A DNA stretch of 64,000 nucleotides from Eledone cirrhosa (Eukaryota): positions 113,646,001 through 113,710,000 of the forward strand of contig OZ024744.1 in the NCBI GenBank assembly GCA_964016885.1. The letters are read 5' to 3'. Shown one piece after another: positions 1 to 21,477 of the stretch. The notes below the pieces were generated by a model. It saw only the letters and a list, made by a program, of their open reading frames with translations. It was not told where the DNA came from and made no database searches. Both the position numbers and the translations under genes were made by a program. Each line of letters begins with the position of its first letter. Within the stretch, counting starts at the first letter, position 1.

Positions 1-1
1 A

Positions 2-1660
2 TGCAAGTTGGTGTTGACACGCCTTCAAGACACAAGCAGGGAACCTATCGGGACCTACTGCTGAATTATGCTTGATTTCCTTTATTGCCGCCAAGACATC
101 AGGGGCGCCAAACGTTATGTCCGATAAGGTGTAATGGGGAGTAACATCGCCGATACAGCCCAGATCGGCCATATCAGGATTGCTGAAAACAGAGCAGTAT
201 TGTTTCTGCAGTATCTCACCCATGGTTTTACCATTGTCTTGAAGAGTGCCATTTTCATCAATTAGAGGGCCAACAGTAGAGCCAGTGATTTTGTGTTTTT
301 TTGCAAATGAAAAGAACACTTTGGGATTGAGTTTGATCTTCTCAATGGCCCAGGCCTCTTCAGCTCTTCTCTGATTGTTGATGAGGGACATTATGTTGTT
401 TTGGAGGTTATGTTTTTTAATCTCTAGTGATGAAATGGCAGTCAAGTTGATGTGTTGCTGCTGACAGTATTTCAGCTTGTTGATTTTTTTGTTCGTTCTC
501 TTAATTTTTCTGATGAGCGTTTTTCTATTTCTAGGGATTCTGCTCTTAGATTTGTTTATAGTTCTTAATGGGGTGTGTTTAGCACATATGTTTGTAACAG
601 TGTCCACAAATGTCTGCCAGGACTTTTTGATGTTAGTGGGTGTATGAGTGTGCGTGAAGGACCAGTCGACATGTGCAAGATCATGACTGATCGCTTCCCA
701 GTTTGCATTGTGGAAATCCATAGCGTCAAACGGATGGACAGGAGAGATGACATTGGGTTTGTATATTGGATGGTGGAATCTCAGATCACAGAGAACCATG
801 TCATGATCAGAGAGTAGAGTTTTCTCCACTGCAATATTGTGGATATTGTCAGTGTGATTTCTGAAAATTAAGTCTAGGACGTTTTTGTGGCACCTCGTTG
901 GTTCGAGCACCAGTTGGGATAGGAAGAAATCATCCATGAAGTCAAGAAGCGATTCCACAGCTTCCCTGTCAGAGGTTGAGGCAGAAGAACCTGGTGGCAG
1001 GCTGTTTGTGGACCAGTCAACTCCGGGGAGGTTGAAGTCCCCCATCATTAAGATGTTGTCAGGGTGACACTCTTGGATGAAACACTTTATGCTGTTGAGG
1101 CATTCCTTGAAGCATGGTACAGGCGTTTGGGGTGGCCTATAGAGCCCAACTACTAATAGGTTGTTGGTTTGACTGAATACAGTGACTGCTTCACAGTATC
1201 CATTAGTGAATATGTTCATAGCCTCTGTTGAGAAAGAATTATGGACATAAATGGCAGTTCCGCCCTTTCTTCTGCCAGCGCGATCAGCACGGATGGCTTT
1301 GAAATTTTTCACTTTCACCTCGGCTTCCAAGTGGAGGTTACTGAGATGGGTTTCAGTGAGGACGAAGAAAGGGATGTGGTTTGGATGGACATCAATCCAG
1401 TCCTCCAGGAATTTGATCTTCCATTTTTGAGTATTGGTGGAAGGGCTGATGCCTTGGGCGTTAAGCAAAAATGTAGAGGCGAGAGTGGATGGTTTTAATT
1501 GTTTTGGTGTGTTGTTAATTTGTTTGTTTGTTAATGGCAGCAATGGGAGTTTGTGCAGTGGGGTGATAGTGGAGGGTGGTGCTGGGTGATAGCTCGAATG
1601 TTTTTTTCCAGTTCTTTTGCCAGATTCATTATGGCTAAAAAAGAGGAAGAAGTTTCCTGT
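2..1660 (-). CDS. LINE ORF2 N-terminal part: apurinic/apyrimidinic-like endonuclease + linker up to the start of RT (partial; absent from the ORF track because it has no stop in the window)
   Basis: Manual translation gives FLLNAQG...FVLTETHL...RADRAGREKGGTAIYV...VVGLYRPP...MMGDFNLPGVDW...LEPTRCHKNVLDLIF...LSDHDMV (APE motifs). It continues IKLNPKVFFSFAKK...QYCSVFS...SAVGPDRFPACVLK (CR1-type pre-RT region). The frame opens after TAA at 1663-1661 and is still the same frame at position 2. Confidence 0.92.
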
Positions 1661-2289
1661 TTAGAAGACTGTTGGTGACTGTGGTAGTGGTTATTTTTAT
1701 GTAGGTTATGGTTTTTGTTTTTGCTTTTATTTTTAATTTTATTTTCATTTGTCCGACGGGTCCCCGGGAGATGGGTAAAGGGACAATCCCGGTCTAAACA
1801 CAATCTGTCTCGCAGGGAAAAACGGCAGATTTGTGGATTCCTTGTTTGAGTTATTGGTGGTTGTGTTGGTGTTAAATTAGAGTATGTATTATGGTGGTGG
1901 CTGTTTGTGGGGATAGATCGTTTTGTCCTAGGTAAATGGGTGAATTTGCAGCCACTATCCGTACATATTCTATAGCATAGAGAGTAGCGGCAAATGATGG
2001 GGTTTCGAGTGGGTGGGTATGTGGGTGTGTGTGTTGTGAGAGGTGTAGATGATGGTTTGGGTAGGATTTGACGACCTTTGTGGACTGTGGGAGGGAGAGT
2101 TCTTGTTCTGGTATTAGAAGGTAAATTCCTTGACATAGCAGTAGACAAAAATGTTGTAGTAGTAGTAGTAGTAGTAGTAGGCAGAGATGGAGATGTTGGC
2201 AGTGGTGATGATTGGACTGCTGGGCCAGAGAAAGGATGTGGCGTTTCATGCTGTGAGACAGAGGCTACTGGGGGGGTCAATAGTTTCAT
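1531..2289 (-). CDS. LINE ORF1 C-terminal part with two CCCH-type zinc fingers
   Basis: CRYSLCYRICTDSGCKFTH and CRFSLRDRLCLDRDCPFTH (C-x8-C-x4-C-x3-H) with Pro/Thr-rich linkers. Lies directly upstream of and overlapping ORF2. Confidence 0.8.
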   Translation of the reverse strand: MKLLTPPVASVSQHETPHPFSGPAVQSSPLPTSPSLPTTTTTTTTTFLSTAMSRNLPSNTRTRTLPPTVHKGRQILPKPSSTPLTTHTPTYPPTRNPIICRYSLCYRICTDSGCKFTHLPRTKRSIPTNSHHHNTYSNLTPTQPPITQTRNPQICRFSLRDRLCLDRDCPFTHLPGTRRTNENKIKNKSKNKNHNLHKNNHYHSHQQSSKQETSSSFLAIMNLAKELEKNIRAITQHHPPLSPHCTNSHCCH

Positions 2290-2683
2290 TTAGTAGATCG
2301 GCCATTGTTGATGAATCAAGGAGTGGTTCACACTGTTGTTGTCGTCGTTGTTGTTGTTGTTGCTGTTGTTGTTGTAGCTGTTGTTGTTGTTGCTGTTGTA
2401 GCTGCTGTTGTTGCTGCTGCTGCTGGACAGCATTCGAAGAGAAAACACACCGTAGTTTATCCAAATGTTTATTGATTAATTTAAAAGCAATTTCGATTTG
2501 CTTTAATTTATTTTGAATCTGTTGTTCAGATCGAGTTTTCAAAAATTGAACTGTACGTTTAGCAATGTCGTTCAGAGATGAAGCATGTATGTCTTCTGTT
2601 TGGGAAAGGCAATGCCATGTGTTTATTAGAATGTCGATTTCATTATCAGACCAGTTCTGTTTGGATTTTTGCTGGTTAGCCAT
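2246..2683 (-). CDS. LINE ORF1 N-terminal part: Myb/SANT-like (trihelix-type) domain + polyglutamine tract; probably one ORF with 1531-2289, split by a 1-nt indel in a C7 run
   Basis: WSDNEIDILINTW...RSEQQIQNKLKQIEIAFK fits the Myb/SANT-like W..E...L..W / R...Q...K pattern. Removing one base from the G run at 2270-2276 fuses ...NETIDPP to VASVSQ... of the downstream ORF. Confidence 0.65.
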   Translation of the reverse strand: MANQQKSKQNWSDNEIDILINTWHCLSQTEDIHASSLNDIAKRTVQFLKTRSEQQIQNKLKQIEIAFKLINKHLDKLRCVFSSNAVQQQQQQQQLQQQQQQQLQQQQQQQQQRRQQQCEPLLDSSTMADLLNETIDPPSSLCLTA

Positions 2684-2880
2684 TCTAGTTTTGAGTGTGT
2701 GTGTGTTTTAGTTAAGTATTTCAATATATATATATTTTTTTTAAATTTATTTTTGATTTATTTTTGTTTTTTGTTTTTCTTGTGTGTGAGTGAGAAGAGT
2801 ATATATATAAATATGAGTATATATATATATATGTATATTCTGGTTATTTGAAATTAATTAAGTTAATGAAAAGACGAAAG

Positions 2881-3040
2881 GTATATATATATACATACAT
2901 ATATATATACATACATATATATATACATACATATATATATACATACATATATATATACATACATATATATATACATACATATATATATACATACATATAT
3001 ATATACATACATATATATATATATATACATACATATATGT
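2881..3040. repeat. Compound (TA)n/(TACA)n microsatellite
   Basis: Direct reading. Confidence 0.97.
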
Positions 3041-4264
3041 ATGCAGCTACTGCATCACTTGGATGACATTTTGAGAGCCTTGGGAGAGGGTTCCAACACT
3101 GATGTTATCTACCTTGATTTCAGCAAGGCCTTTGACAGGGTTGATCATAACATTCTACTGCGAAAGCTGTCCAATATTGGTGTCACTGGAAAGCTGCTGC
3201 AGTGGATCAAGTGCTTCCTGTCAAACAGAACCCAACATGTTGAAGTGGAAGGAGTCAAATCAAGCCCAGCCAAAGTCAGTAGTGGGGTCCCACAAGGCAC
3301 TGTGTTGGGCCCACTTCTCTTCATCATCTATATTAATGACATCACTGACATCATCAAACACAGCAATATTAAAATTTTCGCTGATGATTCCAAGCTCCAA
3401 AAGGTCATCAATGGCGTGGATGACCGGATAAGCCTTCAGTCAGACCTACTGGCTGTTACCCAATGGGCAGAAAAGAACAACATGTTACTGAACGAAGACA
3501 AATTCGAACTGATCCACTTTGGAAAAGAGGATGCTCTGAAACTCCCGTACTCCCTTCCCTCCGGGGAAACTCTCGTGGCATCTAACAACATCAGAGACTT
3601 GGGAGTAACCATGGACAGCAACATAAGCTGGACCACGCATATAAGCAGCAAAGTTGACATGGCCCGCAGAATGTGTTCCTGGATCCTCAGAACCTTCCAG
3701 TCGAGAGATTCCCGCACCATTATCCTTCTCTTCTCTACTTTCGCCCGACCACACCTTGAATACTGTTGTCCACTGAGGTCTCCCCACACGAAACAAAGTA
3801 TCATGAAACTTGAAGCTCCTCAAAGGGCAATCACGAAAAAGATAGATGGCATGTCAGACCTTGACTACTGGGGTCGATTAGAAAACCTGAAACTTTACTC
3901 ACTCCAACGTCGCCGTGAGCGTTATATTATCTGCATGATGTGGAAAATGTTCCATCATCACTGCCCAAATGATGTTGGCATCGCCTTCAAGATACACCCA
4001 AGGCTTGGGCCCCGTGCTATCCGTCCCATTCAAAAATCTAAATCGCAACTCATAACAACAATACGGCACAATTATTTCACCTCAATCGGCCCTGCTCTCT
4101 TCAACATCACACCAGGACACGTCAAAACAGAAACTGACCACACAAAATTCAAGAAGTCTTTGGACAAATTCCTCCAAGTAATCCCGGACAAACCACCCAC
4201 ACCCGGATATGTCTCCGCAAACAGTAATTCTGTTCTCGAATGGGCCATGGTGCCCAAATCCTGA
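3041..4264 (+). pseudogene. Reverse transcriptase fragment (LINE ORF2 C-terminal 407 aa, uninterrupted but 5'-truncated)
   Basis: [54 protein letters not shown] and [10 protein letters not shown] motifs. The ATG at 3041 is probably created by the microsatellite junction. Confidence 0.92.
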
Positions 4265-4340
4265 ATTGAAAGACTTCGCCAGGTGGTGCTATTAAGTTAG
4301 ACATGGCCTGGGCCAATACTGGCCAAAACATTTCAAAGTT
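3044..4340 (+). mobile_element. 5'-truncated CR1-group LINE (RT C-terminal part + 3'UTR) inserted in TA microsatellite
   Basis: RT ORF ends at 4264. The short 3'UTR has a GGCCA-ATAC-TGGCC stem-loop (4311-4324) followed by (TA)n. Microsatellite lies on both sides. Confidence 0.92.
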
Positions 4341-5039
<699 letters not shown>

Positions 5040-5041
<2 letters not shown>

Positions 5042-5355
5042 TGGTGGCTGCCAACTCGTTTTCGAGTACGGCCACTACTATATATCCATGTAGGAGAACC
5101 CCTACCGATGCGCTGAACGAGTGACTTTTTAGTCCAGCCAGCGACTTGAAAACTCTGGTACAAACACTACACTTGTGACAATTATTGACACATAGTGCTG
5201 GGCCCATGGTAGGACAATTATTGACACATAGTGCTGGGCCCATGGTACCATGTGAGGACAAGTGCAGAGAGATCTCCAGATATAAAGCAATGCCTGTGCC
5301 GTGAAGCTTTTATAGTGAGCAAAGGCACTGCACAAAGCCAGTCCCACACTCTTAA
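5040..5355 (-). mobile_element. 3' end fragment of an RTE-like LINE with a C2H2-finger remnant and (TA)n tail
   Basis: The minus strand encodes [17 protein letters not shown]. Terminal stem-loop ACTCG-TTTT-CGAGT (5054-5067, + strand) sits within a longer GTGGCTG/CGGCCAC stem. It ends GGCAGCCACCATATATA. An internal 36-bp tandem duplication lies at 5177-5247. Confidence 0.65.
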
Positions 5356-6584
5356 CATATATATATACATACATATATATATACATACATATATACATAC
5401 ATATATACATACATATATACATACATATATACATATATACATACATATATACATACATATATACATATATACATACATATATACATATATACATACATAT
5501 ATACATATATACATACATATATACATACATATATACATACATATATACATATATACATACATATATACATATATACATACATATATACATACATACATAT
5601 ATACATACATACATACATACATATATACATACATACATATATACATACATATATACATACATATATATATACATACATATATACATACATATATATATAC
5701 ATACATATATATATACATACATATATACATACATATATATATACATACATATATACATACATATATACATACATATATATATACATACATACATATATAC
5801 ATACATATATACATACATATATATATACATACATATATACATACATATATACATACATATATATATACATACATATATACATACATATATACATACATAT
5901 ATACATACATATATATATACATACATATATACATACATATATACATACATATATACATACATATATACATACATATATACATACATACATATATATATAC
6001 ATACATATATATATACATACATATATATATACATACATATATATATACATACATACATATATACATACATACATATATACATACATATATATATACATAC
6101 ATATATATATACATACATATATACATACATATATATATATACATACATATATATATATACATACATATATACATATACATACATATATACATACATATAT
6201 ACATACATACATACATATATATATATACATACATATATATATACATACATACATATATATATATACATTCACATATATATACATACATATATATATACAT
6301 ACATACATATATACATACATATATATATACATACATACATATATACATACATATATACATATATACATACATACATATATACATACATACATATATACAT
6401 ACATATATATATACATATATACATACATATATACATATATATATACATATATATATACATATACATATATATATACATATATATATACATATATATATAC
6501 ATATATATATACATATACATATATATATACATATATATATACATATACATATATATATACATATATATATACATATATATATAC

Positions 6585-6622
<38 letters not shown>

Positions 6623-6646
6623 ATATATATACATACATATATATAT

Positions 6647-6677
<31 letters not shown>

Positions 6678-6696
6678 CATACATATATATATATAC

Positions 6697-6755
<59 letters not shown>

Positions 6756-6778
6756 CATATATACATACATATATATAC

Positions 6779-6827
<49 letters not shown>

Positions 6828-7094
6828 CATATATACATATATATATATACATACATATATACATAATACATATATATATATATATACATACATATATACA
6901 TAATACATATATATATATATATACATACATATATACATAATACATATATATATATATACATACATATATACATAATACATATATATATATATATACATAC
7001 ATATATACATAATACATATATATATATATATACATACATATATATATATACATACATATATATATATACATACATATATATATATACATACATA

Positions 7095-7126
<32 letters not shown>

Positions 7127-7227
7127 CATATATATACATACATACATATATATACATACATACATATATATACATACATACATATATATACATACATACA
7201 TATATATACATACATACATATATATAC

Positions 7228-7260
<33 letters not shown>

Positions 7261-7347
7261 CATACATATATATATACATACATACATATATATATACATA
7301 CATATACATACATATATATATATACATACATATATATATATACATAC

Positions 7348-7382
<35 letters not shown>

Positions 7383-7510
7383 CATACATATATATATATA
7401 CATACATATATATATATATATACATACATACATATATACATGCATACATATATATATACATACATATATATATATATATACATACATACATATATATATA
7501 CATACATATA

Positions 7511-7542
<32 letters not shown>

Positions 7543-7812
7543 CATATATATACATACATATATATTCATACATACATATATATTCATACATACATACATA
7601 CATATACATACATACATACATACATATATATACATACATACATATACATACATACATACATACATATACATACATACATACATATATATACATACATACA
7701 TACATATATATACATACATACATATATATACATACATACATATATATACATACATACATATATATACATACATACATATATATACATACATACATATATA
7801 TACATACATACA

Positions 7813-7844
<32 letters not shown>

Positions 7845-8335
7845 CATATATATATACATACATATATATATATACATACATACATATATATACATACATA
7901 CATATATATATACATACATATATATATACATACATACATATATATATACATACATATATATATATACATACATACATATATATACATACATACATATATA
8001 TATACATACATACATATATATATACATACATACATATATATATACATACATATATATATATATACATACATACATATATATATACATACATACATATATA
8101 TATACATACATACATATATATACATACATACATATATATATACATACATACATATATATATACATACATACATATATATATACATACATACATATATATA
8201 TACATACATACATATATATATACATACATACATATATATATACATACATACATATATATATACATACATACATATATATATACATACATACATACATATA
8301 TACATATATATATATACATACATATATATATATAC

Positions 8336-8373
<38 letters not shown>

Positions 8374-8517
8374 ACATACATATATATACATATATATATA
8401 TACATACATATATATATATACATACATATATATATATACATACATATATATATATACATACATATATATATATACATACATATATATATATATACATACA
8501 TATATATATATACATAC

Positions 8518-8580
<63 letters not shown>

Positions 8581-9001
8581 CATATACACATATACATACA
8601 CATATATATATACATACATATATATATACATATATATATACATACATATATATATACATACATATATATATACACATATATATACATACATATATATATA
8701 CATACATATATATATATACATATATATATATACATATATATATATACATATATATATATACATATATATATATACATATATATATATACATATATATATA
8801 CATATATATATATACATATATATATACATATATATATATACATATATATATATACATATATATATATACATATATATATACATATATATATACATATATA
8901 TATATACATATATATATATACATATATATATATACATATATATATATACATATATATATATACATATATATATATACATATATACATATATACATATATA
9001 C

Positions 9002-9046
<45 letters not shown>

Positions 9047-9273
9047 CATATATATATATACATATATATATATACATATATATATATACATATATATATA
9101 TACATATATATATATACATATATATATATACATATATATATATACATATATATATATACATATATATATATACATATATATATATACATATATATATATA
9201 CATATACATATATACATATACATACATATACATATATATACATATACATATATATACATATACATATATATAC

Positions 9274-9304
<31 letters not shown>

Positions 9305-9333
9305 CATATATATATATACATATATATATATAC

Positions 9334-9396
<63 letters not shown>

Positions 9397-9471
9397 CATA
9401 CATATATATATACATACATATATACATACATATATATATATACATATATATATATACATATATATATATAC

Positions 9472-9518
<47 letters not shown>

Positions 9519-9560
9519 CATATACATATATATATATACATACATATATATATATACATA

Positions 9561-9596
<36 letters not shown>

Positions 9597-9628
9597 CATA
9601 TATATATATACATATATATATATACATA

Positions 9629-9692
<64 letters not shown>

Positions 9693-9880
9693 CACACACA
9701 CATATATATATATATACATATATATACACACACACGTATATATATATATATATACATATATATACACACACACGTATATATATATATATCCATACAATAT
9801 ATATATACATATAATATATAAATATACATACATATATATATACACATATAATACATATATACATATATATATACACACAC
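5356..9880. repeat. About 4.5-kb compound (TA)n/(TACA)n microsatellite
   Basis: Direct reading; the + strand is almost free of G. Confidence 0.98.
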
Positions 9881-10698: not shown

Positions 10699-10849
10699 GA
10701 CTGTTATGGCTGCTGGTAATAATGACGATGGTGGTGAATATGCCGAAAAGGATGATATACCACCACCACCACTGCTGCTATTGCAGCAACAATTACACCA
10801 CAAAGTACCCCTCTCCCAAGCTACTTAAAACCTTTAACCATTTACACTA

Positions 10850-13800
10850 CTTTCTGTATACTATTGTATTTTCACAGTAAAGTCTTTACCTCACATAACA
10901 TTTACTTTACTCTATATATACTATTGTATTTTCACAGTAAAGTCTTTACCTCACACAATATCTCACATAACATTTACTTTACTCTATATATACTATTGTA
11001 TTTTCACAGTAAAGTCTTTACCTCACACAATATCTCATAACATTTACTTTACTCTATATATACTATTGTATTTTCACAGTAAAGTCTTTACCTCACATAA
11101 TATCTCACATAACATTTACATTACTCTATATATACTATTGTATTTTCACAGTAAAGTCTTTACCTCACACAATATCTCACATAACATTTACTTTACTCTA
11201 TATATACTATTGTATTTTCACAGTAAAGTCTTTACCTCACACAATATCTCACATAACATTTACTTTACTCTATATATACTATTGTATTTTCACAGTAAAG
11301 TCTTTACCTCACATAATATCTCACATAACATTTACATTACTCTATATATACTATTGTATTTTCACAGTAAAGTCTTTACCTCACATAATATCTCACATAA
11401 CATTTACTTTACTCTATATATACAACTGTATTTTCACAGTAAAGGCTTTACCTCACATATCTCAAATAATATTTACATTACTCTATATATACTATTGTAT
11501 TTTCACAGCAAAGGCTTTACCTCACATAACATTTACATTACTCTATATATACTATTGTATTTTCACAGTAAAGGCTTTACCTCACACAATATCTCACATA
11601 ACATTTACATTACTCTATATATACTATTGTATTTTCACAGTAAAGGCTTTACCTCACCTAATATCTCACATAACATTTACATTACTCTACATATACTATT
11701 GTATTTTCACAGTAAAGGCTTTACCTCACATAATATCTCACATAACATTTACGTCACTATATATACTATTGTATTTTCACAGCAAAGTCTTTACCTCACA
11801 CAATATCTCACATAGCATTTACATTACTCTACATATACTATCGTATTTTCACAGTAAAGGCTTTATCTCACATAATATATCACATAACATTTACATCACT
11901 ATATATACTATTGTATTTTCACAGCAAAGTCTTTACCTCACATAATATCTCACATAACATTACTCTATATATACTATTGTATTTTCGCAATAAAGTCTTT
12001 ACCTCACATAATATCTCACATAACATTTACATTACTCTATATATACTATTGTATTTTCACAGTAAAGGCTTTACCTCACACAATATCTCACATAACATTT
12101 ACATTACTCTACATATACTATTGTATTTTCACAGTAAAGGCTTTACCTCACACAATATCTCACATAACATTTACATTACTCTACATATACTATTGTATTT
12201 TCACAGTAAAGGCTTTATCTCACATAATATATCACATAACATTTACATCACTATATATACTATTGTATTTTCACAGCAAAGTCTTTACCTCACATAATAT
12301 CTCACATAACATTACTCTATATATACTATTGTATTTTCACAGTAAAGTCTTTACCTCACATAATATATCACATAACATTTACATCACTCTATATATACTA
12401 TTGTATTTTCACAGTAAAGTCTTTACCTAACATAATATATCACATAACATTTACATTACTCTATATATACTATTGTATTTTCACAGTAAAGGCTTTACAT
12501 CCCACAATATCTCACATAACATTTACATTACCCTATGTATACTATTGTATTTTCACAGTAAAAGCTTTACCTCACATAACATTGACATTACTCTATATAT
12601 ACTATTGTATTTTCACAGTAAAGTCTTTACCTCACATAATATATCACATAACATTTACATCACTCTATATATACTATTGTATTTTCACAGTAAAGTCTTT
12701 ACCTCACATAATATATCACATAACATTTACATCACTCTATATATACTATTGTATTTTCACAGTAAAGTCTTTACCTCACATAATATCTCACATAACATTT
12801 ACATTACTCTATATATACTATTGTATTTTCACAGTAAAGTCTTTACCTCACATAATATCTCACATAACATTTACATTACTCTATATATACTATTGTATTT
12901 TCACAGTAAAGTCTTTACCTCACATAATATATCACATAACATTTACTTTACTCTATATATACTATTGTATTTTCACAGTAAAGTCTTTACCTCACATAAC
13001 ATTTACATTACGCTATATATACTATTGTATTTTCACAGTAAAGGCTTTACCTCACATAATATTTCACATAATATTTACATTACTCTACATATACTATTGT
13101 ATTTTCACAGTAAAGTCTTTACCTCACACAATATCTCACATAACATTTACATTACTCTACATATACTATTGTATTTTCACAGTAAAGGCTTTATCTCACA
13201 TAACATTTACATTACTCTGTATTTACTATTGTATTTTCACAGTAAAGTCTTTACCTCACATAACATTTACATTACTCTATATATACTATTGTATTTTCAC
13301 AGCAAAGTCTTTACCTCACACAATATCTCACAACATTTACATTACTCTACATATACTATTGTATTTTCACAGTAAAGTCTTTACCTCCCACAATATCTCA
13401 CATAACATTTACATTACTCTACATATACTATTGTATTTTCACAGTAAAGACTTTACCTCACATAATATATCACATAACATTTACATTACTCTATATATAC
13501 TATTGTATTTTCACAGTAAAGGCTTTACCTCACACAATATCCACATAACATTTACATTACTCTATATATACTATTGTATTTTCACAGTAAAGTCTTTACC
13601 TCACACAATATCTCACATAACATTTACATTACTCTCTATATACTATTGTATTTTCACAGCAAAGGCTTTACCTCACATATTTACATTACTCTATATATAC
13701 TATTGTATTTTCACAGTCAAGGCTTTATCTCACATAACATTTACATTACTCTGTATTTACTATTGTATTTTCACAGTAAAGCCTTTACCTCACACAATAT

Positions 13801-14318
13801 CTCACATAACATTTACATTACTCTATATACACTATTGTATTTTCACAGTAAAAGCTTTACCTCACATATCTCAAATAATATTTACATTACTCTATATATA
13901 CTATTGTATTTTCACAGTAAAGGCTTTACCTCACATAACATTTACATTACTCTATATTTACTATTGTATTTTCACAGTAAAAGCTTTACATCACATAATA
14001 CCTCACATAGCATTTACATTACTTTATATATACTATTGTATTTTCACAGTAAAGGCTTTACATCACATCATATCATATCTCACATAACATTTACATTACT
14101 CTATATATACTATTGTATTTTCACAGTAAAAGCTTTACTTCACACAATATCTCACATAACATTTACATTACTCTGTATATACTATTGTATTTTCACAGTA
14201 AAGGCTTTACCTCACATAATATCTCACATAACATTTACATTACTCTATATATACTATTGTATTTTCACAGTAAAAGCTTTACTTCACATAATATCTTACA
14301 TAACATTTACATTACTCT
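10850..14318. repeat. 72-bp minisatellite with a 60-bp variant, left block (roughly 50 units)
   Basis: Unit CTATTGTATTTTCACAGTAAAG(T/G)CTTTACCTCACATAATATCTCACATAACATTTACATTACTCTATATATA; the short variant lacks one 12-bp TCACATAATATC sub-repeat. Confidence 0.97.
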
Positions 14319-18789: not shown

Positions 18790-21477
18790 GTAGTGCCTCA
18801 GTATGGCCACAGTCTAATGACAAAAATGTAGTGAGGTTGATATGGTAGACTATATCAAGGTAGTGCCCCAGTATGGCCACAGTCTAATGACTTACACCAG
18901 TAAAACAGTAGTGAGATTGATATGGTAGACTATATCAAGGTAGTGCCCCAGTATGGCCATACTCTAATGACTAACACCAGTAAAACAGTAGTGAGGATAA
19001 TATGGTAGACTATATCAAGGTAGTACCCCAGTATGGCCACAGTCTAATGACTGACACCAGTAAAACAGTAGTGAGGTTGATATGGTAGACTATATCAAGG
19101 TAGTACCCCAGTATGGCCACAGTCTAATGACTGACACCAGTAAAACAGTAGTGAGGTTGATATGATAGACTATATCAAGGTAAAGCCCCAGTATGGCCAC
19201 AGTCTAATGACTTACACCAGTAAAACAGTAGTGAGGTTGATATGGTAGACTATATCAAGGTAGTGCCCCAGTATGGCCATACTCTAATGACTAACACCAG
19301 TAAAACAGTAGTGAGGTTGATATGGTAGACTATATCAAGGTAGTACCCCAGTATGGCCACAGTCTAATGACTGACACCAGTAAAACAGTAGTGAGGTTGA
19401 TATGGTAGACTATATCAAGGTATTGCCCCAGCATGGCCACAGTCCAATGACTGACACCAGTAAAACAGTACTGAGGTTGATATGGTAGACTATATCAAGG
19501 TAGTGCCCCAGTATGGCCACAGTCTAATGACTGACACCAGTAAAACAGTAGTGAAGTTGATATGGTAGACTATATCAAGGTAGTGCCCCAGTATGGCCAC
19601 AGTCTAATGACTGACACCAGTAAAACAGTACTGAGGTTGATATGGTAGACTATATCAAGGTAGTGCCCCAGTATGGCCACAGTCTAATGACTGACACCAG
19701 TAAAACAGTACTGAGGTTGATATGGTAGACTATATCAAGGTAATGCCCCAGTATGGTCACAGTCTAATGACTGACACCAGTAAAATAGTAGTGAGGTTGA
19801 TATGGTAAACTATATCAAGGTAGTGCCCCAGTATGGCCACAGTCTAATGACTGACACCAGTAAAACAGTACTGATAGATTATATCAAGGTAGTGCCTCAG
19901 TATGGCCACAGTGTAGTGACGGACACATGCAAAACAGTACTGAGGTTGATATGGTAGAGTATATCAAGGTAGTACTACAATATGGTCACAGTCTAATGAC
20001 TGACACCAGTAAAACAGTACTGATAGATTATATCAAGGTAGTGCCTCAGTATGGCCACAGTGTAGTGACGGACACATGTAAAACAGTACTGAGGTTGATA
20101 TGGTAGAGTATATCAAGGTAGTACTACAGTATGGCCACAGTCTAATGACTGACACCAGTAAAAATAGTAGTGAGGTTGACATGGTAGACTATATCAAGGT
20201 AGTGCCCCAGAATGGCCACAGTCTAATGACTGACACCAGTAAAACAGTACTGAGGTTGATATGGTAGACTATATCAAGGTAGTGCCCCAGTATGGCCACA
20301 GACTAATGACTGACACCAGTAAAACAGTACTGAGGTTGATATCGTAGACAATATCAAGGTAGAGCCCCAGTATGGCCACAGTCTAATGACTGACACCAGT
20401 AAAACAGTACTGAGGTTGATATGGTAGACTATATCAAGGCAGTGCCCCAGTATGGCCACAGTCTAATGACTGACACCAGTAAAACAGTAGTGAGATTGAT
20501 ATGGTAGACTATATCAAAGCAGTGCCCCAGTATGGCCACAGTCTAGTGACTGACACCAGTAAAACAGTACTGAGGTTGATATAGTAGACTATATCAAGGT
20601 AGTGCCCCAGTATGGCCACAGTCTAATGAGTGACGCCAATAACACAATACTGAGCTTGATATGGTAGACTATATCAAGGTAGTGCCCCAGTATGGCCACA
20701 GTCTAATGACTGACACCAGTAAAACAGTACTGAGCTTGATATGGTAGGCTATATCAAGGTAGTGACCCAGTATGTCCACAGACTAATGACTGACACCAGT
20801 AAAACAGTACTGAGGTTGATATCGTAGACAATATCAAGGTAGAGCCCCAGTATGGCCACAGTCTAATGACTGACACCAGTAAAACAGTACTGAGGTTGAT
20901 ATGGTAGAATATATCAAGGTAGTGCCTCAGTATGGCCACAGTCTAATGACTGAAAGCAGTAAAACAGTAGTGAGGATGATATGGTAGACTATAAAAGGGT
21001 TGTGCCCCAGTATGGCCACAGTCTAATGACTGAAAGCAGTAAAACAGTATTGAGGTTGATATGGTAGACTATATCAAGGTAATGCCCGGGTATGGACACA
21101 GACTAATGACTGACACCAGTAAAGTAGTAGTGAGGTTGATATGGTAGACTATATCAAGGTAGTGCCCCAGTATGGCCACAGTCTAATGACTGACACCAGT
21201 AAAACAGTACTGAGGTTCATATGGTAGACTATATCAAGGCAGTGCCCCAGTATGGCCACAGTCTAATGACTAAAAGCAGTAAAACAGTACTGAGGTTGAT
21301 ATAGTAGACTATATCAAGGTAGTGCCCCAGTATTGCCACAGTCTAATGACTGACACCAGTAAAACAGTACTGAGGTTGATATGGTAGACTATATCAAGGT
21401 AGTTCTCCAGTATGGTCACAGTCTAATGACTGCCACCAGTAAAACAGTACTGAGGTTGATATGGTAGATTATATCAA
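18790..21477 (+). repeat. 80-bp minisatellite (about 33 units), SINE 3'-end derived
   Basis: Unit GTAGTGCCCCAGTATGGCCACAGTCTAATGACTGACACCAGTAAAACAGTA(G/C)TGAGGTTGATATGGTAGACTATATCAAG. Confidence 0.96.

Follow-up and report, generated by a model that had tools for sequence, protein, structure and literature searches.

How the second open reading frame (ORF2) of long interspersed nuclear elements (LINEs) is translated is a long-standing question, studied mostly in L1 and SART1, and many invertebrate LINE models carry an AUG-less ORF2 for which no explanation is given. The question is raised anew by a LINE copy on the reverse strand, at the start of a stretch of 64,000 nucleotides (nt) of the Eledone cirrhosa genome (GenBank assembly GCA_964016885.1, contig OZ024744.1, positions 113,646,001 to 113,710,000; the whole stretch is hereafter the window). 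Because there is no start codon before the endonuclease and a U_UUU_UUA heptamer lies near the start of the overlap between ORF1 and the -1 frame, ORF2 is probably made as an ORF1-ORF2 fusion through low-level -1 ribosomal frameshifting at this heptamer, a reading to which we assign a probability of about 0.8 on comparative sequence evidence. Such a retrovirus-like fusion had been proposed in an earlier sequence-only reading of the window, and is supported here by the conservation of the heptamer, the stop-free -1 frame and the missing AUG.

The ORF1/ORF2 junction

The junction comprises the following features (window positions).

1661..1663, minus strand: TAA that closes the ORF2 frame and precedes the first heptamer by 18 nt; changed to TAG in the relatives' contigs.
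1531..1660, minus strand: ORF1/ORF2 overlap of 130 nt, ORF2 being in the -1 frame.
1636..1642, minus strand: slippery heptamer T_TTT_TTA in ORF1 phase, read as Ser-Phe-Leu in ORF1; predicted -1 shift site.
1635, minus strand: G directly after the heptamer, which creates an AG and, in the +1/-2 frame, a UAG; shared by all six lineages described below, by L139/L141 and by L204.
1600..1606, minus strand: second in-phase heptamer, A_AAA_AAC, read as Glu-Lys-Asn; family-specific and possibly incidental.
1531..1533, minus strand: ORF1 stop TAA, about 24 codons ahead of the endonuclease Asn.
1217..1219, minus strand: first ATG of the ORF2 frame (codon 148), within the endonuclease.

Our ORF analysis agrees with the sequence-only reading on the opening of the ORF2 frame after the TAA at 1663-1661, on the 130-nt overlap with ORF1, on the ORF1 phase of both heptamers (1642-1636 and 1606-1600), and on the lack of an ORF2-frame Met ahead of the endonuclease motifs. 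An in-frame ATG before the endonuclease, which that reading had named as evidence against itself, was absent from family A, to which the element belongs: the first ORF2-frame Met is codon 148 (1219-1217), 81 codons beyond the Asn of the LNAQG motif, in 30/30 best-scoring loci, which include the window copy and were picked for near identity. In the ORF1 frame, the overlap encodes a helix-like tail reaching 36 codons past the first base of the heptamer and terminating in His-Cys-Cys-His-stop, and in the ORF2 frame a linker rich in Thr, Pro, His and Lys. An ORF1-frame ATG at 1629-1627 was considered as a relevant start and rejected, as it is in the wrong frame and reads ATA in the relatives' contigs.

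Genomic copies of the family

A DNA search of the genome returned 1411 candidates, and the 40 that were scored were about 100% identical. Family A is thus a young and abundant LINE, with around 600 copies spanning the junction. Copies were counted by exact pattern, requiring a match to the 24 nt after the site and either T-A-G or a non-T at position -3 ahead of them; TTTTTTAG, with its six Ts, was present in 599/623 counted copies (TAG precedes the 24-mer in 621 of these, and the other 2 have a base other than T at -3). Of 593 copies listed together with both flanks, the first 100 comprise 93 with T6AG, three with five Ts, three with seven (one of these with C in place of A) and one with eight. 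Because T6AG so prevails and T7 is limited to 3/100, it is the two-frame arrangement that amplifies, the fused T7 copies being sporadic. The same figures dispose of two further possibilities: that the window copy is a broken single ORF, which we rejected also because five other lineages are built alike, and that a fused ORF has been amplified, the outcome that the sequence-only reading had set against its own proposal.

The run-length variants bring to mind slippage of RNA polymerase on the T6 run, which would add a U and yield rare fused-ORF mRNAs. Cis preference is established for LINEs and should lead to 7-U RNAs being copied back, yet the listed copies are T6AG with changes in both directions; polymerase slippage is also a less simple fit to the loci, described below, that carry A_AAA_AAC. 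We regard it as very improbable.

The copies also bear on splicing. If TTTTTTAG were a 3' splice acceptor, removal of an intron within ORF1 would fuse ORF1 and ORF2 in frame. The AG is invariant in 6/6 lineages and recurs in L139/L141 and in L204, the similarity of some relatives stops just upstream of the T-run, and three copies read TTTCAG. A spliced, ORF2-making RNA should nevertheless be copied back into the genome, and 599/623 copies keep the T6 run; the two copies in which -3 is not T are colinear and represent point variants, and four of the 22 other non-T6 copies proved on inspection to be three colinear T5 copies and one 5'-truncated copy. No spliced genomic copy was thus found among those inspected (18 of the 22 were not viewed, and T-N-N ends other than TAG were not searched), and no joint at 1635/1634 was found in the relatives' contigs and one DNA read set, which speak at the DNA level only. 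Among the sequencing runs listed as containing the stretch, none was recorded as RNA. Moreover, a competing AG lies at most 13 nt upstream in 4/6 lineages and the upstream pyrimidine content is 0.26-0.58, so that the pyrimidine tract and the AG free of upstream competitors that mark a U2-type 3' splice site are lacking. Finally, the tract never contains a C, even though either TTC or CTA would serve splicing as well as Phe-Leu (P = 0.03-0.21 per lineage). Splicing at this site is accordingly improbable.

The same site in distant relatives

Such young copies are only weakly informative on selection, and distant relatives were therefore examined. Searching the genome with endonucleases of homologues revealed families B and C. 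The endonuclease of family B is 33% identical to that of A; its -1 overlap is 271 nt long, and of the 28 distinct places counted, 24 have T_TTT_TTA in phase, 78 nt past the last ORF2-frame stop. In family C the overlap is 226 nt and the site lies 6 nt past the ORF2-frame stop, an arrangement found in 10/10 junction-holding loci (12 fetched). A metagenome scan returned 80 loci, among which L091, L092, L093 and L094 were best by profile score (about 193, the remaining loci reaching at most 119); in each of these four the -1 overlap measures 202-208 nt, and T_TTT_TTA_G follows the ORF2-frame stop at a distance of 0-12 nt. As L091 and L092 belong to one family, six lineages could be compared: A, B, C, L091/L092 (lineage D), L093 and L094. 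Endonuclease identities to L091 are 32% (A), 43% (B), 44% (C), 40% (L093) and 67% (L094), and the six fall into a single clade, in which A branches deeply (quick tree; Shimodaira-Hasegawa-like approximate likelihood ratio test, SH-aLRT = 99).

T_TTT_TTA_G is found in ORF1 phase within a -1 overlap in 6/6 lineages, and 0-18 nt past the last ORF2-frame stop in 5/6 (78 nt in B). In each lineage, the ORF1 residues that follow Phe-Leu make up a tail of helix-like character, often rich in Gln, and in the ORF2 frame 60-76 codons of low-complexity linker lead to the endonuclease Asn; the composition of the overlap is 57-70% A+C. No ATG occurs from the site to this Asn in 5/6 lineages, the first ORF2 Met lying 81, 10, 66, 101 and 9 codons beyond it. 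Of the two slippery sequences singled out by the sequence-only reading, which had called for a conservation check in genomic copies and related families, T_TTT_TTA(G) is therefore conserved far beyond the family. In contrast, A_AAA_AAC (1606-1600) is kept only within family A and an older subfamily of it; missing from the five other lineages and with no fold behind it (z = -0.34), it was rejected as a conserved site.

Copies of family B (e.g., L050 and L064) carry tandem slippery sequences, A_AAT_TTT followed by T_TTT_TTA, and the ORF1 of this family ends in Cys-Cys-Cys-stop. A search of the Eledone genome with the ORF1 fingers matched almost only family C, and one with L093 retrieved family B again. 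No relatives were found in the viral contigs searched, and the prokaryote contigs searched gave two loci, probable contaminants.

At the protein level, x-F-L-[G/D/E/V] followed by a helix-like tail is present near the C-terminus of ORF1 in 7/9 distinct homologue lineages, two of which are again lineages D and F. The residue x is His, Ser or Asp, and the codons of all four residues that follow Phe-Leu begin with G. The ORF1 of relatives also includes a PHD finger (PF00628 on P0024). Three ORF2 homologues begin with Met (P0001, P0005 and P0008), which was not accepted as proving that an AUG is present; at that position Val stands in a cluster mate of P0001, whose own Met is probably a gene-caller start.

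Conservation beyond the amino acid sequence

The probability of the exact heptamer was computed for each lineage from the residues x-F-L and the codon use of the element. It ranges from 0.009 to 0.053, and the heptamer is present in 6/6 lineages; the product of the six values, 2e-11, is exaggerated as D and F are close kin. The first heptamer is thus kept beyond amino-acid need, more than expected by chance. Stops in the -1 frame number 56 in the 819 ORF1 codons upstream of the site versus 0 in the 365 codons from the site to the ORF1 stop, where the +1 frame used as control has 30. This zero arises partly by construction, since ORF2 was defined to its first stop, and synonymous shuffles are the fair measure: they give probabilities of a stop-free -1 frame of 0.25, 0.04, 0.59, 0.13, 0.07 and 0.31 in the six lineages. 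Overall, the junction feature is real and far from chance.

These figures leave little room for an incidental overlap and heptamer, with Phe-Leu kept for the ORF1 helix and ORF2 made from a separate transcript or from a truncated start. Phe-Leu does open an amphipathic, helix-like ORF1 tail, and a stimulatory structure is absent from folds and pseudoknot scan (see below). However, neither the fixation of the heptamer codons in 6/6 lineages nor the loss of -1-frame stops follows from this, and a start at Met148 would drop the LNAQG, TETHL and GGTAIY motifs. We hold this explanation to be extremely improbable.

The position of the ORF1 stop suggests another route, namely reinitiation at a non-AUG codon close to this stop, as has been suggested for the L1 of mammals; the heptamer would then be a relic or serve the ORF1 protein. 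In 4/6 lineages, the stop lies within four codons of the endonuclease Asn with CTG, GTG, ATA or ATC beside it, and lineage D has an ATG at -14; AUG-independent initiation is also thought to be used by L1 ORF2 (PMC5009743). On the other hand, reinitiation leaves unexplained both the stop-free -1 frame over the 36-72 codons upstream of the stop and the fixation of the heptamer codons, and no near-cognate start is common to all lineages. The stop position itself is explained by composition in most lineages, because a stop in the -1 overlap needs an ORF2 Leu, Ile, Val or Met codon, and these are first common at the first strand of the endonuclease; the probability that ORF1 would stay open, given the ORF2 residues, is 0.30-0.79 in 5/6 lineages and 0.013 in B. 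None of the lineages was found to have the arrangement of L1 and SART1, in which the AUG of ORF2 lies at the ORF1 stop or closely behind it. The ORF2 of SART1 is translated through UAAUG coupling. We consider reinitiation unlikely.

A wider set of LINEs

The association was also examined in a wider set, in which 34/82 loci had both ORFs readable; removal of five near-duplicates and of L204, whose ORF1 is degraded, left 28. An in-phase heptamer lies within the overlap in 15 of the 17 test loci with ORF2 in the -1 frame (the 16 without AUG ahead of the endonuclease, and L091), where 4.9 were expected. Excluding L091, L093 and L094, the count is 12/14 against about 4.4 expected. The controls have a heptamer in 1/11 loci (1.8 expected), with none of the three that combine a -1 overlap with an AUG and one of the eight with ORF2 in frame 0 or +1. 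Many of the wider-set loci carry A_AAA_AAC, which cannot act as a splice acceptor.

Eight of the more distant metagenome LINEs, with a different ORF1 (L113, L119, L122, L124, L130, L155, L164 and L170), have -1 overlaps of 43-304 nt, an in-phase A_AAA_AAC and no AUG ahead of the endonuclease; in L170 the heptamer stands immediately ahead of the ORF1 stop. Outside the clade, T_TTT_TTA_G occurs in the overlap of L139/L141 and in L204 (L204:597-609), there two codons ahead of the stop, at the end of a degraded ORF1 that we take from its motif to be esterase-like. Four other loci (L104, L137, L146 and L157) have ORF1 and ORF2 in one frame with a single TGA between them and no AUG before the endonuclease, and are candidates for stop-codon readthrough.

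The element and other repeats in the window

Beyond the junction, the copy comprises the following features.

1..2850, minus strand: 5' part of an APE-type LINE (ORF and Pfam analysis).
2684..2850, minus strand: probable 5' untranslated region (UTR); the match to copy L035 ends near 2850.
1531..2683, minus strand: ORF1, from Met at 2683 to TAA at 1533-1531.
1992-1936 and 1827-1771, minus strand: two ORF1 finger motifs, presumably of CCCH type.
1..1660, minus strand: ORF2 frame, with linker, APE endonuclease and start of the reverse transcriptase (RT); continues beyond the window edge.
794..1462, minus strand: APE-type endonuclease, from the LNAQG Asn (1462-1460) as far as the Pfam match extends.

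ORF1 counts about 385-395 amino acids from Met in intact sister copies, and is whole in most of them; in the window copy its frame is disrupted by a single surplus C in a C-run near 2276-2270. Besides the fingers, it has poly-Q and, at its N-terminus, a weak Myb/SANT-like match (PF13837, E = 3e-4, below the cut-off). ORF2 includes APE endonuclease and RT domains (PF14529, PF03372 and PF00078), the endonuclease matches spanning amino acids 82-289 of its frame. The full ORF2 has 1043-1045 codons in four of the eight longer copies, and that of the window copy stops early, at 926 codons. The 3' end consists of one to three copies of a 7-10-nt unit, not poly(A), in 4/4 copies. APE and RT in ORF2, a separate ORF1 and a tandem-repeat 3' end are CR1/L2-type features (for LINE classification, see PMC4120745 and PMC11203168). 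A cluster search gave generic LINE clusters only. We take the family to be CR1/L2-type, a label based on domain content, the tail and general knowledge, not on a tree with named references.

Upstream of the probable 5' UTR lies a (TA)n microsatellite, shared with a second copy of the same family at 3043-4420 on the plus strand, head to head with the first; it is 5'-truncated, runs from the RT to the 3' end and is 97.8% identical to L035. The 3' ends of all four full-length copies checked (L034-L037) lie within (TA)n microsatellites (cf. 2850-3060 and 4340-9873 in the window), which suggests that insertion may target microsatellites. Further along, 10839-14318 and 18828-21477 are occupied by minisatellites whose units measure 72 and about 80 bp, and 21473-63997 by an array of 42.5 kb in which a 27-bp unit is repeated about 1586 times with a 90% match. 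One strand of the latter reads as mucin-like Ser/Thr/Pro/Val, with open stretches of up to 2428 codons, frame switches and many stops; either a satellite or a giant repeat exon distorted by assembly errors would be conceivable.

Comparison with known systems

U_UUU_UUA is a proven -1 site of alphaviruses and the type 1 human immunodeficiency virus (HIV-1) (PMC2569925). The alphavirus 6K/TF and HIV-1 gag-pol sites share with the present one the identical heptamer, its zero-frame phase, the Phe-Leu codons and the location at the 5' end of the -1 ORF, and the 6K/TF site was likewise detected via conservation beyond amino-acid need (PMC2569925). In contrast, a hairpin or pseudoknot lies 3' of the site in HIV-1 and in most alphaviruses, whereas here none is conserved, the host is a non-long terminal repeat (non-LTR) retrotransposon and the shift is predicted from sequence. 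Alphavirus shifting reaches 5-40% with 3' stimulators and drops below 0.5% in a U_UUC_UUA mutant, and the Semliki Forest complex and Aura virus possibly shift without a compact 3' structure (PMC2569925). The product of the HIV site is mixed Leu/Phe (PMC5009743), and nascent-chain forces are able to stimulate -1 shifts (bioRxiv 10.1101/790444).

Among LINEs, the sequence-only reading had contrasted the junction with the well-studied L1 and SART1. These do differ: mammalian L1 and silkworm SART1 also have a bicistronic RNA and scarce ORF2 protein (ORF2p; for L1, PMC5009743), but their ORFs are separated or stop-start and ORF2 has its AUG, whereas here a -1 overlap of 130-271 nt is combined with the lack of an AUG in 5/6 lineages. 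However, the contrast overlooked Dictyostelium TRE5-A and TRE3-A, which a review states to require a -1 frameshift for ORF2 (PMC5911963). They are likewise two-ORF, APE-type non-LTR elements, but are amoebozoan and target tRNA genes, and end in an oligo(A) tail (PMC5911963), as opposed to the animal host, tandem-repeat tail, (TA)n sites and heptamer conserved across a deep clade described here. CR1/L2 lineages of the Jockey group resemble family A in their APE and RT, variable ORF1 and tandem-repeat 3' end, although no ORF1 type bearing CCCH fingers was found in the part of the table covered (PMC4120745). Frameshifting has been invoked in another animal non-LTR element, Drosophila HeT-A, but there it lies within gag, in an element without RT, and is not a switch from ORF1 to ORF2 (PMC5009743). 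The part of the Atkins review that was covered mentions HeT-A, TART and L1, and no ORF1-to-ORF2 frameshift in an animal LINE was found in it (PMC5009743). More generally, nothing on such a site in animal CR1/L2-type LINEs was found in the literature covered, which included few subscription or older papers and no Repbase reports. Repbase reports may have suggested frameshifting for overlapping CR1-type ORFs. The comparative support for a putative shift here spans a deep LINE clade, and the -1 shift stated for the Dictyostelium elements is a precedent.

How the site may work

Several observations weigh against frameshifting. First, no conserved hairpin was found when the 80 nt after the site were folded in the six lineages (z = -0.41 in A, then -0.01, +1.48, +1.87, -1.37 and -2.78, the last value reached only by L094), and a scan for simple H-type pseudoknots gave none in 3/6 lineages and none better than shuffles in the other three; the sequence-only reading had likewise seen no convincing downstream structure. 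Second, the G after the heptamer is superfluous in the standard slippage model and creates the AG, and three copies read TTTCAG. Third, the ORF1 stop is at most four codons from the endonuclease Asn in 4/6 lineages, with near-cognate codons there, and lineage D has an in-frame ATG 14 codons ahead of this Asn, which its sister F lacks. The number of independent cases is also reduced by the kinship of D and F and by the sister pairs among the wider-set loci, and the Phe-Leu motif is missing from 2/9 ORF1 homologue lineages. Lastly, the site is intact in only 5/11 copies of the older subfamily, three of them probable duplicates; the other six are altered, each in different ways, as expected for decayed insertions.

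Compared with a canonical signal of the HIV-1/alphavirus type, the phase of the heptamer, the open -1 frame and the conservation are all present, and a hairpin or pseudoknot 5-9 nt downstream is absent. Because this defining 3' structure is absent, we do not class the site among the canonical structure-stimulated elements and take it only to work in a similar way. For the same reason, we propose that it works at a low basal rate or with non-structural aid, such as a scarce tRNA-Leu(UAA), the nascent chain or a protein. LINEs need little ORF2p, and a low, structure-free shift rate may thus suffice.

Under -1 frameshifting, most ribosomes would stay in frame and make the ORF1 protein (ORF1p) with its C-terminal helix, while a few percent or less would shift at 1642-1636. 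The latter would replace the helix with a low-complexity linker of 55-70 residues, followed by endonuclease and RT, giving a product in which about 350 residues of ORF1 are joined to about 1040 of the ORF2 frame and which is devoid of the ORF1 terminal helix. Such a scheme would keep ORF1p in large excess over ORF2p and hold the latter to the RNA encoding it. As for the G, a possible role is that UUU-UAG would halt ribosomes slipping -2 or +1.

More broadly, we lean slightly towards the view that a Gag-Pol-like fusion by -1 frameshifting is the standard route to RT in many AUG-less animal CR1/L2-type LINEs. In this clade, U_UUU_UUA_G would be kept despite wide divergence and without RNA structure through a non-structural stimulator, such as a leucine tRNA in short supply or the zinc fingers of nascent ORF1, and U_UUU_UUA or A_AAA_AAC would serve other branches likewise. 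With one conserved heptamer at its centre, the question can be tested by one synonymous mutation. If the view is correct, animal genomes would hold a large class of -1 frameshift sites without stimulatory RNA structure, ORF2p would carry the RNA-binding fingers of ORF1, as in Gag-Pol, and the assembly of ribonucleoprotein particles, cis preference and the ORF annotation of such elements would have to be reread.

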